DNA of 45,902 nt from Neolecta irregularis DAH-3 (Eukaryota), in contig LXFE01000360.1 in the NCBI GenBank assembly GCA_001929475.1, forward strand, positions 1 through 45,902. Reading direction: 5' to 3'. A program made the translations under genes and the position numbers. Positions 706 to 39,737 of the stretch are shown here, piece by piece. The notes under the pieces were generated by a model. The model ran no database searches, had not been told where the DNA came from, and saw only the letters and a list, made by a program, of their open reading frames with translations. The number at the start of each line of letters is the position of its first letter. Within the stretch, counting starts at the first letter, position 1.

Positions 706-2219
706 CTAAAGGGCAATGCTATTACTTAAAGCTGCTTCAAATACGACAAATGCACTATATTCACCCTCAGCAACAGCTCCATATTCCCCTAAGCCTGACT
801 GTCCCTCATCCTCAGCAGCCTGTTTCTTCTTGCTAATGTTGGCAAAGTTTGGCTCTCCAAGATATGCATAGGCCTTGTTGAGAACAGTCCTGGTTTTTGA
901 TTCCTGTTTGGGGTAGGGCTTTTACTTTATTAGCATTCTCATTGATACTCTCTCACCCTCACAACTGTGGAAACAAAGTCCGGCGGTAACCCATATCGAA
1001 GAACGCTCTCCACAAATACCCGTATGGCTTTGAGGTGAATCCACGCCTGAAATGCGTCGCTAAAGGACATTTTTGCCAGTCTAAGGGTCTCTCCCTAAAT
1101 TTAAGTTGATAGAAATAACCATAAATGTACCCAAAGCTTCCGCTCCAATGATCCAGCCATCTCGATTTCTTTGTGCTCATCTTCCCCACTCATCGCATCC
1201 CACGTGAATTCGCGAGGCTGGAATCTTGCAGATCAAATAAACCATGACCTAATAACTCACTTTGCTTCCCGGCACTTGTTCGCAAATTCTGCTGCAAACC
1301 TTTTGAATAAAGTCACGCTAACAAGAATGTAATCTTCGTCTTCTGTGAGTTTCCTATAGTTTTAGCACACGCAAGATCTAGACTAACTTGGATGATCGTG
1401 GAACAACCATTTTTGAAAGCATTTCATATTTCTTCCACCAATCTTTTTGTATCGTTCTACTTGTCAACGTAGTTTGGGAAAAAGACAAACTTCGGTACTG
1501 CCACAAGCATTGTCTCAAGATATTCCGAGTTGGTCACAAAATCATCTTCTTTCACCATTCCTGCAAGACTTCGTTGCGAGAGATTTCCACTATGTAGTAA
1601 GTATTGAAATTGGAAATAGTAGCAACGTTTGTTTCCGTTGTAACGAAGTGTAAGTTCCTTTCGCTTGGTTCCAAGCTGCGTATTTTGTCCGGACATCCTC
1701 ATCGAGTGATGCCATTTCCTCAAATTAGCTTAAGAATATAAACATGTACATGCTTTACTCAGCGAGTCCATTAATTCATGTAAGGACTTGTCAGTCCGAT
1801 ATTTGATCGTGCTCCATTCAAAGGACTTCATGTATACGTCAATGTGTTCTAGAATTAATCTGGTCTTTTGATGGGGACGTACTCCCATCGACTTTCTGTT
1901 GGTCTCTCAATTTGTCTTCCTGACCTGGAAGTACGGTCTTCAAAACGTCCGCAATTTTGTTCACCACACCCTCGAAAGTCCCATCGAGTTTTGCCAACTC
2001 TTCGCTCTGGATAACCAAGGCATCTAGAGTTCCGATCTAGAGATGAGAAAGATTATTGATGATTACTAGTACCTTGAGCGACGGAATGGAAAACAGGGCA
2101 ACATCTGCATAATTGTTGCTGGTAGAGGAGATTTTAGACTTGATTTCCTGGTAGACTATGTTCTTGTCTCTTCCACCTTCTGTGGGTATGGCGATTAGCC
2201 AGTAAGAGCGAGAGTCCAT
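706..2219 (-). CDS. VMA5: V-type ATPase V1 subunit C (about 9 introns)
   Basis: Spliced translation [12 protein letters not shown]...FSIPSLK|IGTLDAL...GNLSQRSL...[12 protein letters not shown]...[22 protein letters not shown]...SNSIAL*, with typical subunit C motifs. Confidence 0.93.
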
Positions 2220-2475
2220 TAAGATTCGTCGTTGTATCAATAGGGATGTGGTTACTCCAATCAATAAATCGATGAAATAAACGCGCTACTTTTCTGATTT
2301 CTTTGCAAATACAACCAACCACTGTATCACAAGTTATTGAATTGATAAATGTAGGCAAAAGAGTGGTCAATGTCCTTTTAATCACCTGGTTCAAAGTGGC
2401 ATCAAGGAACATTGAAAATACATTTGATCTATGCCAGATGAAAACCCAATAGCCTTCGAGAAATGAAACGGCTTG

Positions 2476-3407
2476 TTAGCTGCGTCGGCTATTCCATTGC
2501 CGCACAAGTTCTTCGTACAACGTCCAAGTGATTGCAGAACTCACAGCTTTCCTTGCCATTCTGAGGCCTACTCCGTCCATGAATCCCATTATTCCTTCCT
2601 CCTTGCAGTTAGCACCAAGGACCTTGATCTACAAACTCTGAAAATCTTCCGTGTCGAACTCTGGAGATTTACATATTCTCTCGGTCTTGTTTGTATTCTC
2701 GTTTTAATGAGATCAAAGGGATTGGTGAATATTGTAGCCGAAACTCCGGCGACCATACCTGCCTGTGTTGGCAGACTTTCAAGTACCCGCACCTGAAGCA
2801 AAATTGACAGGTAGCGAGTTGCCTGGAAGAGTTTTTTTGCAGGCCTCATAAGAAAACACGTATATCCCGGCATAGGGAGCATCACGAAGAGCAGTGACTC
2901 CAAATCCAGCAAAGAATCCTACCTTTCAATGATAAGGCATATATTGAGACTGACCATTAACACCTCCACCACGAAATATATCCCGAGTGGCATGTAAAAT
3001 AGTGTTATATGTGTACAGGCTGCTCTATTTTATCAAGATCCCTTCCAATATATCAGGTGTACCTCAAAACGGACTTTGACTATCGTAATCGGCATCATGA
3101 CGAATCCCACAGCTGCTCGGGCGCTAGCTCCGGTAATCAGATTGACCATTGCGGTATTATTGTCCTTTCTCATCATCGCCAGAGTTTGAAAGTACAATGC
3201 CGAACCAACAGACGTCCGGATCATGCTCGGCCAGGCTCCTCTCCACAAGCCCCAAACACCTTCATTACGAAGAATGGCGGTTACTTGAGAATATACCGAC
3301 CCCGCTTTTCTGGTCTGTTGAACTCGCGTTTTGAGTAAATCAAAGGGCTGCAGTACAACGCTGGAAAGAAGACCGGATACTGCACCGGCCGACAGATGGG
3401 AAACCAT
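2476..3407 (-). CDS. HEM25: Mitochondrial glycine carrier (SLC25A38 family), 4 introns
   Basis: Three carrier repeats: [33 protein letters not shown]. Family motifs [19 protein letters not shown] and [15 protein letters not shown]. Confidence 0.88.
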
Positions 3408-3506
3408 ATAAGCGCAGATAATAAAGGGGAAAATCCCCAAAAGAATTTTGGTTACACCAGAGACCGCTTTTAAAAATATATTTCCCTGTCAACCACCAAA
3501 AGTAAT

Positions 3507-37308: not shown

Positions 37309-37840
37309 CCCAGAATGCTAGCCTGGCCCTCGGAGCACGCAATGGACTGTGATTATGACGCTATATTTAGAACTGGCGTTTTCATCGAGTTGCTGTACAT
37401 TGATTATTATAATGATCTGCATTTCGCACAAAATAAGAGCATCTAGAGGTCGTTCGGGCGTTTGAAGCACCCTGATTTTACAACAATCCGGATTTTCCGG
37501 AGCAGAATAGAGCAGGTGACTCAATAACTAAAGCAATGCTTAATCAATCGACATGGCCTTTTCCTACATCTCTCTACCAGTTGCGCGGTTCTATCTTTTG
37601 TTGACAAATCCATTCAACATTATCTGCGCTGGCGGAGTAAACCGGCGCCACAATCTCACATGCTACCGCCGAGTCAAACAGCAAAAATAAACAATGAAAC
37701 GTGTTCGTTTCAAGAAAACTGGCAGTTGGAGCCGAGTAGCAGACAGATCCGATTTCTATTCGCTAGATAGAGGCGGTGCGAGTATTCCCCCAATAGTCAG
37801 TGCTGGGAAAGCCATACCCAAAGCGGCGGCTGTAATTTTG

Positions 37841-37854
37841 CTTATCAAGATAAC
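37841..37854. promoter_or_regulatory. Paired inverted GATAA sites upstream of the ammonium permease
   Basis: CTTATCAAGATAAC about 90 bp upstream of the ATG. GATA factors control nitrogen-repressed MEP genes in fungi. Confidence 0.5.
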
Positions 37855-37941
37855 ATTCTTCTGTTTACCACTCCCTCTGTTTACCATCACTTGCCGCATC
37901 TCACCTTTATAACCTGCAAAGCATCGACCCTGCCATTCGAC

Positions 37942-39737
37942 ATGGATCACTACAACGGAACTGGGGCAACCGGTGGAGATTCTCGTATCCCCTGCGATCT
38001 GCCAATAATCTAATCGAAAGGCACTGTCAACCTAAATCAACGGTATAATCCTGGGGATATGGCCTGGATATTGGCTTCCACTGCCCTCGTCTGGCTCATG
38101 ATCCCCGGCGTTGGTTTCTTTTATTCCGGACTGTTTGGCCCTCGAAAAAATCCTCAAACCAATCAAATAGGGCTCGAAGAAAGTCGGCTCTCTCCCTGAT
38201 CTTGCTTACTATAATGTCCACCGCAGTCGTCTCGTTTCAGGCATCACTCTCGCGTTATCTAATCTCTCCACTAACCTCTCAAAAGTGGTTCTTTTGGGGC
38301 TACAGTCTGGCTTTTTCTCACAGTGCCGGCTTGTTTATTGGCGACCTGGCAAACTTTGGATTTAAAGGGGTACTTGGTCGAGTGTCTGTCGGATCCCCGT
38401 TCATCCCCGACGCGCTCTATGCGGTTTATCAATTGATGTTCGCTTGCAGTAAGCAGTCAAAGATTCCCCTGTTTCTAACATCCGCATAGTTACTCCCGCT
38501 CGTACTCCCATTTGTGATGTGCTAAAAATAATTATTTAGTTGCTATTGGTGCTGCTTCAGAACGGGGACGTTTGCTTCCGTGTATCGTGTTCATATTTGT
38601 CTGGTCAACCCTTGTATACGATGTCATCGCTTGCTGGACATGGAATCCCAGCGGTTGGATGTTCAAGATGGGCAGTATTGACTTTGCCGGGGGATCTCCC
38701 GTACCTTTTTGTATTTGAATTCTCGCCGATGATTAGGTCCATATTTCATCCGGTAGCGCTGCCCTGGCTTATTCACTGATGCTTGGAAAGCGGCATGGTA
38801 AGGATTTGTCAACTTACAGCTAATTCCAGGTCATGGCACCAACGAGCTCAATTTTCGACCACACAATGTCACACACGTCGCCCTTGGAACTGCTTTGCTA
38901 TGGTTTGGATGGTTCGGGTTTAATGGTGGTTCCGCAGGAGGTGCAAACCTCCGAGCTGTTTCGGCTTGTATCGTCACAAATTTGGCTGCGAGTACCGGCG
39001 CAATCACTTGGGTTCTTCTTGATTTAAATTTCGAAAAGAAATGGACTACTGTGGGGTTCTGCTCTGGTGCTGTTGCCGGGCTAGGTATAATGCCGCGTTT
39101 CATTTGTTTGACAATTAGTGGCTATTACCCCGGGTTCCGGGTTTGTCCCGCCCTGGACGGCCGTAATCTTTGGCATCCTTGGAAGTGCGGCTTGCAATTA
39201 TGCAACAAAGATCAAATACTGGCTCGGTATCGACGACGCGCTCGATATATTTGCCATCCACGGCATTGGTGGTCTCGTGGGCAACATATTGTCGCAAGTA
39301 TCTGTCATTCACGCAGCTGATCAGAAAGTGGGATTTTCGCTGCAGACTACATTGCTGCTCTCGATGGAGTCACCGTCATCCCAGGTGGATGGCTTAACCA
39401 TCATTGGATACAGTTGGGATACCAGCTCGCCGATTCAATGGCATGTATGGCTTACTCATTCGTCGTAACGTGTATCATTCTTTTCATCATGAACCTAATA
39501 CCGGGGCTCTCACTTCGAGTGCCAATTGAGGGCGAACTCGCCGGTATTGACGACTACGAGGGCGGAGAATTTGCATACGATTACGTCGAAAATGAACGAG
39601 ACTATCGATCGCGAGCTGATCTGGAAACTTCGATTCTTGATGTCAAAAAGGCAGATGATGGTGCCAGAGCAATAGACATGTCAACACTTCACATTGACAA
39701 GTCGATTCATAGTAGTCACGACGAACCCCCGCAATAG
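37942..39737 (+). CDS. Ammonium permease Amt/Mep, twin-His (Mep2-like), about 9 introns
   Basis: ALVWLMIPGVGFFYSGL|ARRKSAL, FQ|WFFWGYSL, DFAGGSP|VHISSG, LWFGWFGFNGGS, DDALDIFAIHGIGG. Confidence 0.95.

Follow-up and report, generated by a model that had tools for sequence, protein, structure and literature searches.

On a contig of the ascomycete Neolecta irregularis DAH-3, about 6% of the introns appear to begin with GC where GT is the rule, several times the usual ascomycete share. The contig (LXFE01000360.1 of GenBank assembly GCA_001929475.1; 45,902 nucleotides (nt), analysed in full and called the window below) carries about 20 genes, and a GC-AG intron is found in seven of them. We hold with good confidence that these are ordinary U2-type introns with C in place of T at position +2 of the donor, and from their architecture we infer a cause for their abundance. 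A preliminary description of the window had listed eight GC-AG introns with their donor hexamers, and all eight intervals do start with GC and end with AG on the coding strand, and in most of them the AG follows a CTRAY-like box by a few bases (Table 1). It had also held that protein conservation requires the GC donor in VMA5, NIPA, MAK21, TMF1/SGM1 and ARG1 and at two places in MEP. Homology bears this out at each of these seven sites, where the predicted GC-AG boundaries are confirmed as the sole options collinear with relatives and the GT alternatives are all worse. The eighth site, in DIS3, is graded lower, as it was in that description.

Table 1. GC-AG introns of the window and the NIPA features that go with them (coordinates are window positions).
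Feature	Position	Strand	Length	Donor	Remark
VMA5 (V-ATPase subunit C) GC-AG intron	1719..1753	-	35 nt	GCATGT	
NIPA GC-AG intron	9652..9686	-	35 nt	GCACGC	
NIPA microexon	9687..9707	-	21 nt		7 codons; 3' side depends on the GC donor
NIPA GT-AG intron	9708..9744	-	37 nt		Upstream of the microexon; partly coding in the public model
DIS3 probable GC-AG intron	11211..11247	+	37 nt	GCATTT	Between the CR3 cysteine motif and the PIN domain
MAK21/Noc1 GC-AG intron	20555..20595	+	41 nt	GCACGC	
TMF1/SGM1 GC-AG intron	22776..22811	+	36 nt	GCAGAT	Within the TMF_DNA_bd domain
ARG1 (argininosuccinate synthase) GC-AG intron	30288..30328	-	41 nt	GCAAGT	
MEP (ammonium transporter) GC-AG intron 1	38241..38285	+	45 nt	GCATCA	In frame, stop-free
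MEP GC-AG intron 2	39294..39328	+	35 nt	GCAAGT	

The boundaries are tested in two ways. For MEP, TMF1 and NIPA, all frame-open G[TC]..AG pairs near the junction, together with the read-through where possible, are translated and scored against a profile of homologues that excludes the contig's own protein. For ARG1, VMA5, MAK21 and DIS3, the frames flanking the intron are aligned to proteins of solved structure. The MEP profile is built from 83 fungal transporters of at least 440 residues, out of 119 listed. As a control, the same scoring ranks the annotated GT-AG boundary first at all seven other MEP junctions. At the first GC site of MEP, the GC-AG version scores 829.1 bits, against 809.0 bits for the best GT option and 807.8 bits for the read-through, among 16 alternatives; the relative P0002, which is 77% identical, lacks the 15 residues that this intron would encode. 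At the second, the GC-AG version (again 829.1 bits) is set against 14 alternatives, including the annotated GT donor at 39291, 3 nt upstream, which scores 820.9 bits; here the GC version equals P0002 in length and the public model is one residue short. The contig of P0002 itself is not among the 80 other fungal loci returned by a metagenome scan with this protein.

The TMF1 profile holds six of the seven proteins found. The GC-AG version scores 248.7 bits, compared to 240.4 bits for a 21-nt GT "intron" (14 alternatives), it aligns without gaps to all six homologues across the junction, and its splice-signal score, 20.6, is the highest among the GC sites. The control is less clean for this gene: the annotated GT boundary comes out on top at only two of three GT junctions, the third lying in a poorly conserved coiled coil and for that reason not being discriminated. 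For NIPA, the combination of a GT intron, a microexon and a GC intron ranks first of 87 one- or two-intron solutions under a profile of 104 homologues, by a margin of 5.6 bits. This margin is small because 85 of the 104 homologues are themselves unspliced and read through an intron at this point. When the profile is restricted to the 17 spliced full-length homologues and the other 87 are dropped, the GC version reaches 599.3 bits versus 578.7 bits for the annotated GT version. All 17 spliced homologues have seven residues at the place of the microexon, and five of the seven match or nearly match those of the contig.

In the genes aligned to solved structures, the GC-AG boundaries join residues that are adjacent in the relative. 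In VMA5, residue 136 of yeast Vma5 ends the upstream exon and residue 137 begins the downstream one; the splice-signal score is 18.0, whereas the next frame-compatible option reaches 2.8 and the best GT option 0.8, and retention of the intron leads to a stop codon. In MAK21, residues 687 and 688 of yeast Mak21 adjoin at the junction, as do positions 93 and 94 of the Pfam CBF profile; the signal score is 13.8, compared to -0.8 for the best GT option, and retention again leads to a stop codon. In ARG1, residue 63 of human ASS1 (2nz2_A) falls on the last upstream codon and residue 64 on the first downstream codon, and a GT option 12 nt upstream (30288-30340) would remove four conserved residues.

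DIS3 is the site that homology leaves undecided, because it lies in a variable linker: the alignment to yeast Dis3 stops at base 11191, and the exon downstream of 11247 gives no useful match in the solved-structure search. A change of reading frame is required at the site, and among 15 frame-compatible G[TC]..AG options the GC-AG pair comes first with a signal score of 13.0 bits; no GT option exceeds -3.6, and the two that leave the cysteine motif intact score -4.3 and -6.5. The preliminary description had called this donor probable and had pointed to a GT alternative, and we keep that grade: a probable GC-AG intron. Signal scores lend support elsewhere too. At the seven sites tabulated for them (all except NIPA), the GC-AG pair has the best splice-signal score among the frame-compatible options.

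The share of GC-AG introns depends on how many introns the window has. We count them with a gene finder based on dynamic programming, which combines codon usage with a model of donor, branch site, acceptor and length trained on GT introns only, and uses strand masks. Its total varies from 94 to 123 introns with the intron prior and is 116 at the setting of best recall; after three homology-based corrections, there are 118 introns, 110 GT and 8 GC. On 31 verified introns in four genes, the gene finder has a precision of 0.93 and a recall of 0.87, which translates into about 124 true introns. The GC-AG share of the contig is thus 7-8 of 118-124, or 5.6-6.8%, close to the roughly 110 introns and 6-7% of GC donors reached by hand in the preliminary description. 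The 95% confidence intervals are 2.4-11.8% for 7/118 and 3.0-12.9% for 8/118. In fungal annotations, the mean GC-AG share is 1.009% (PMC7072748, Table 1), and the values cited in PMC4500085 are 1.0-1.2% in ascomycetes and up to 3% in basidiomycetes. Binomial probabilities against 1.009% are 2.1e-4 for 7/118 and 2.9e-5 for 8/118, and against 2% they are 0.0098 and 0.0027. The usage of about 1% that is typical of ascomycetes does not hold on this contig. The excess over about 1% that had been noted by hand is therefore supported, and we take it, on the predicted introns, to be a real local excess over the ascomycete norm, for this contig only.

In length and branch features, the GC introns look much like their GT neighbours. 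Introns of the contig are short (median 36 nt, 5th to 95th percentile 33-42 nt), with a strong CTRAY branch box whose A is some 8 nt away from the 3' end. The profile of the donors is weak: besides A at +3, it favours G at -1, T at +4, G at +5 and T at +6, none of which is worth more than about 1 bit. The 8 GC and 110 GT introns are alike in branch score (p = 0.23), branch distance (p = 0.43) and length (p = 0.19), although DIS3 and ARG1 have weak branch boxes; the acceptors of the GC introns are slightly poorer than those of the GT introns (p = 0.010). The U12-type donor [AG]TATCCTT is found at none of the eight GC-AG sites.

GC donors of other organisms have flanks that are compensated towards AAG/GCAAGT. 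The window appears to show a mild form of this compensation. Donor fit outside +1 and +2 averages 3.08 bits in GC introns and 1.57 bits in GT introns (Mann-Whitney p = 0.049); A occupies +3 in 8/8 GC versus 77/110 GT introns, and -2 in 7/8 versus 52/110. The suggestion that several of these donors do without the strong AAGT compensation stands to the extent that GCAAGT itself occurs at only two of the eight sites, the other six being far from it. It holds less well for the group as a whole, which lies 1.5 bits above the GT donors.

Several points weigh against our reading of these introns as a raised class of U2-type GC-AG introns. One GC candidate of our own, at 17909-17946 and described below, scored well and is false, so splice signals and an open frame are by themselves no proof, and the ranking by signals counts as support only. 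DIS3 is placed among the GC-AG introns on frame and splice signals alone. The structure matches that place the VMA5 exons are individually weak, with expectation values (E) of 0.039 and 0.13, although both top hits are subunit C and the two are contiguous. The denominator comes from a home-made predictor calibrated on 31 introns. Against a background of 3%, the binomial probabilities are 0.065 for seven and 0.026 for eight GC introns, which makes the excess borderline. The share is based on one contig, and the genome-wide share could be lower. Finally, that the GC donors are nearer to the consensus than the GT donors fits ordinary compensated donors as well as it fits the relaxed 5' splice-site recognition that the preliminary description had suggested.

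Four other explanations bear on the same data. One is that the public annotation is right, the real donors being GT sites close by, and that the GC boundaries are artefacts of forcing the homology. GT options that keep the frame do exist (MEP 39291, ARG1 30340, the 63-nt NIPA intron, and DIS3 11192 and 11198), the public models use three of them, those at MEP 39291 and in NIPA included, and our candidate at 17909-17946 was indeed wrong. Yet these options cost 8 to 21 bits against the family profiles or remove conserved residues, their signal scores are at most 4.8 compared to 9.4-20.6 for the GC pairs, and VMA5, MAK21 and TMF1 offer no GT option of normal length at all; P0002 moreover agrees with the GC version at both MEP sites. 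We consider this explanation very unlikely. It is scarcely credible that these are GT donors whose C at +2 stems from an error of sequencing or assembly, or from a polymorphism of the strain. Nothing speaks for it directly beyond the assembly being a short-read one with an N50 of 16 kb, as given in PMC5309816; the coverage is 199-fold, errors would need to have hit intron position +2 eight times independently, and the public models, which derive from these very bases, had to get round them.

A further possibility accepts the introns and takes the contig for a chance outlier, the genome-wide share being the usual 1-3%. The window covers 46 kb of a 14.5-Mb assembly, the feature was chosen because it is high, and both the comparison with 3% and the lower confidence limits of 2.4-3.0% leave room for it. 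The comparisons with 1.009% and 2% speak against it, as does the absence of any choice among windows of the N. irregularis genome, and eight sites in seven genes spread over 38 kb cannot be put down to one local event; an outlier is in our judgement unlikely. Some of the GC sites could instead be weak regulated donors whose intron is often retained, the 45-nt MEP intron for instance, to give two forms of the protein. GC donors are linked to alternative splicing in other organisms. Retention of the first MEP intron adds 15 residues in frame and without a stop, and a GT donor 3 nt upstream competes with that of the second. Retention would bring a stop or a frameshift at six of the eight sites, however, and homologues do not have the 15 residues of MEP, so that we see regulated use of these sites as improbable.

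We return to U2-type introns with C at +2 as the preferred reading, and to what may have let them become common. The introns are very short, with a strong CTRAY branch about 8 nt before the AG, and the donor carries scant information beyond G, T or C, and A. Recognition would then lean on length, on the branch site and on the A at +3. With length and branch site so informative and the donor so poor in information, a change from T to C at +2 would cost little and would probably be nearly neutral, so that it could persist more often and accumulate. A bolder version of this idea, which we put forward tentatively and think more doubtful than not, is that GC donors make up at least 5% of introns throughout the N. 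irregularis genome. The machinery would then rely on length and branch site to read short introns and would have mostly lost discrimination at +2, possibly through a lineage-specific change at the 5' end of U1 snRNA or in U1C, Luc7 or Prp8. If a share of at least 5% held genome-wide, there would be well over a thousand GC sites (5,546 genes at about six introns per gene, as on the contig). It would also be the highest GC share in any intron-rich fungus, at a guanine plus cytosine (G+C) content of only 44%.

GC-AG introns are a known kind, and the closest comparison is with the U2-type GC-AG introns of other ascomycetes (Rep et al. 2006, as cited in PMC4500085), which likewise pair GC donors with AG acceptors and have normal branch sites. 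They too sit in ordinary housekeeping genes and are overlooked by gene callers that allow GT only. The window differs from them in its share, 5.6-6.8% versus 1.0-1.2% (up to 3% in basidiomycetes), and its GC introns are just 35-45 nt long. Much higher shares are found in algae. In Emiliania huxleyi, GC-AG accounts for 56% of 241 mapped junctions, and a G+C content of 65% is tied to it as the cause (PMC4028052); in pelagophytes, GC-AG accounts for about 14-17%, tied likewise to high G+C (bioRxiv 10.1101/2024.10.30.620910). As on this contig, the GC donors of these algae have canonical AG acceptors and lead to wrong ab initio models, the rise being lineage-wide in the algae. The share on the contig is much lower (7-8/118, with an upper 95% limit of 12.9%, below 14%), and G+C is 41-52% on the contig and 44% in the assembly, not about 65%. 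Since N. irregularis has 44% G+C, the explanation of the algal rise by high G+C does not apply to it. Among fungi, Meyerozyma guilliermondii is an outlier with 6.67% of major non-canonical sites (PMC7072748). This percentage is similar to ours but derives from annotation, whereas the window has about 120 introns in 46 kb. Introns are very few in M. guilliermondii, so its percentage comes down to a handful of sites. U12-type introns also have boundaries other than GT-AG, but the eight GC donors of the contig lack the ATCCTT box, and the branch box of their introns is the CTRAY also found in the GT-AG introns of the contig.

That an intron-rich ascomycete of moderate G+C should have a GC-AG share of about 6% is apparently unreported, as far as our searches show. 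The literature search found no paper that pairs "Neolecta" with "GC-AG". The main text of the Neolecta genome paper (PMC5309816) contains neither "intron" nor "splice"; its supplement, which lay outside this search, may hold intron statistics. What that paper does report, in the parts drawn on here, is an assembly of 14.5 Mb with 44% G+C, 199-fold coverage and 5,546 genes, with RNA sequenced too. If the share on the contig were to hold genome-wide, a fungus with 44% G+C and 35-nt introns would be a counter-example to a rise of GC-AG introns driven by G+C. It would also offer a natural system for studying how much weight donor position +2 carries when branch site and length supply information.

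Gene callers restricted to GT donors give wrong models of these genes. At the four sites inspected, none of the public Neolecta protein models uses the GC donor. The MEP model P0001 reads through the first GC intron, which gives a false insertion of 15 residues, and uses the GT donor at 39291 for the second, which gives a deletion of one residue. The TMF1 model P0121, labelled "partial", begins at the first ATG after 22811 and so has a truncated N-terminus (region 22776-22844). The NIPA model P0128 has a 63-nt GT intron and skips the microexon (region 9652-9744). If the share on the contig holds genome-wide, an extrapolation would put the mis-modelled part of the proteome at about one quarter to one third, and the N. 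irregularis proteome serves comparative work on fungal multicellularity.

Other features of the same genes are as easily missed. MEP also has a 12-nt microexon at 38490-38501 (+), between two GT-AG introns, which is needed for collinearity with homologues, as is the 21-nt microexon of NIPA. In ARG1, two GT-AG introns at 30412-30450 (-) and 30183-30221 (-) are each 39 nt, in frame and stop-free, and would otherwise be 13-residue insertions relative to every solved argininosuccinate synthase; being in frame and without stops, they are invisible to a reading based on frames and were missed by the gene finder. MAK21 shows a 12-residue insertion relative to yeast Mak21 at about 20.8-21.0 kb (+), which is probably a 36-nt intron. 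In NIPA, at 9745 (-), 85 of the 104 database "NIPA" proteins (P0129-P0247) run into the intron after a conserved YLN and then end or diverge. These read-through proteins come mostly from metagenome assemblies and are unspliced gene calls from fungal DNA. That 85 of 104 read through at one position indicates that the position of the intron is widely conserved.

Two further GC candidates were rejected. In V-ATPase subunit H, the candidate at 17909-17946 (-) has a signal score of 15.9 bits and keeps the frame, and is false: a GT-AG intron at 17951-17985 is preferred, with 540.2 versus 521.4 bits against a profile of 12 full-length homologues. Searches of solved structures with the N-terminus of this subunit gave nothing informative. 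In a class II aminoacyl-tRNA synthetase, the candidate at 3863-3903 gives an implausible peptide and is absent at other settings of the gene finder. A census by signals only, covering all 16 donor dinucleotides, finds scores of at least 16 bits at 7 GC sites on sense strands, versus 4 GA and 6 GG sites, and was dropped. It does not discriminate because the 3' half and the length dominate the score, and neighbours of true donors also score high. The gene for subunit H also contains a very intron-like 37-nt GC..AG stretch at 16540-16576 (-), with 19.7 bits, that overlaps the stop codon and whose splicing would alter only the last two residues; the profile scores of its two versions are nearly equal, 521.4 versus 521.1 bits.

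The genes of the window are crowded on both strands. Pfam was searched with the 150 longest stop-to-stop frames and with the 150 longest among 418 shorter frames on sense strands. Genes identified in this way encode V-ATPase subunits C and H, a mitochondrial carrier, the class II aminoacyl-tRNA synthetase, an HMG-box protein, the NIPA magnesium transporter, DIS3, ribosomal protein L9, Nse4, MAK21, TMF1/SGM1, Apq12, a GNL3-type GTPase, indoleamine dioxygenase, argininosuccinate synthase, an Etd1-like protein, the ammonium transporter, Nup84/107 and a KA1 kinase. An Rfam search of the contig gives no matches. A stretch of about 5 kb, at 32900-37900, has open frames of at most 178 residues on both strands; the frames scanned in it have no Pfam match, and the gene finder predicts no genes there. 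Near the end of the contig, at 153-190 and 336-527 (+), we observe a degenerate 13-nt pyrimidine-rich repeat in about seven copies together with a short purine-rich patch, about 170 nt upstream of the repeat and 75-88% complementary to it.

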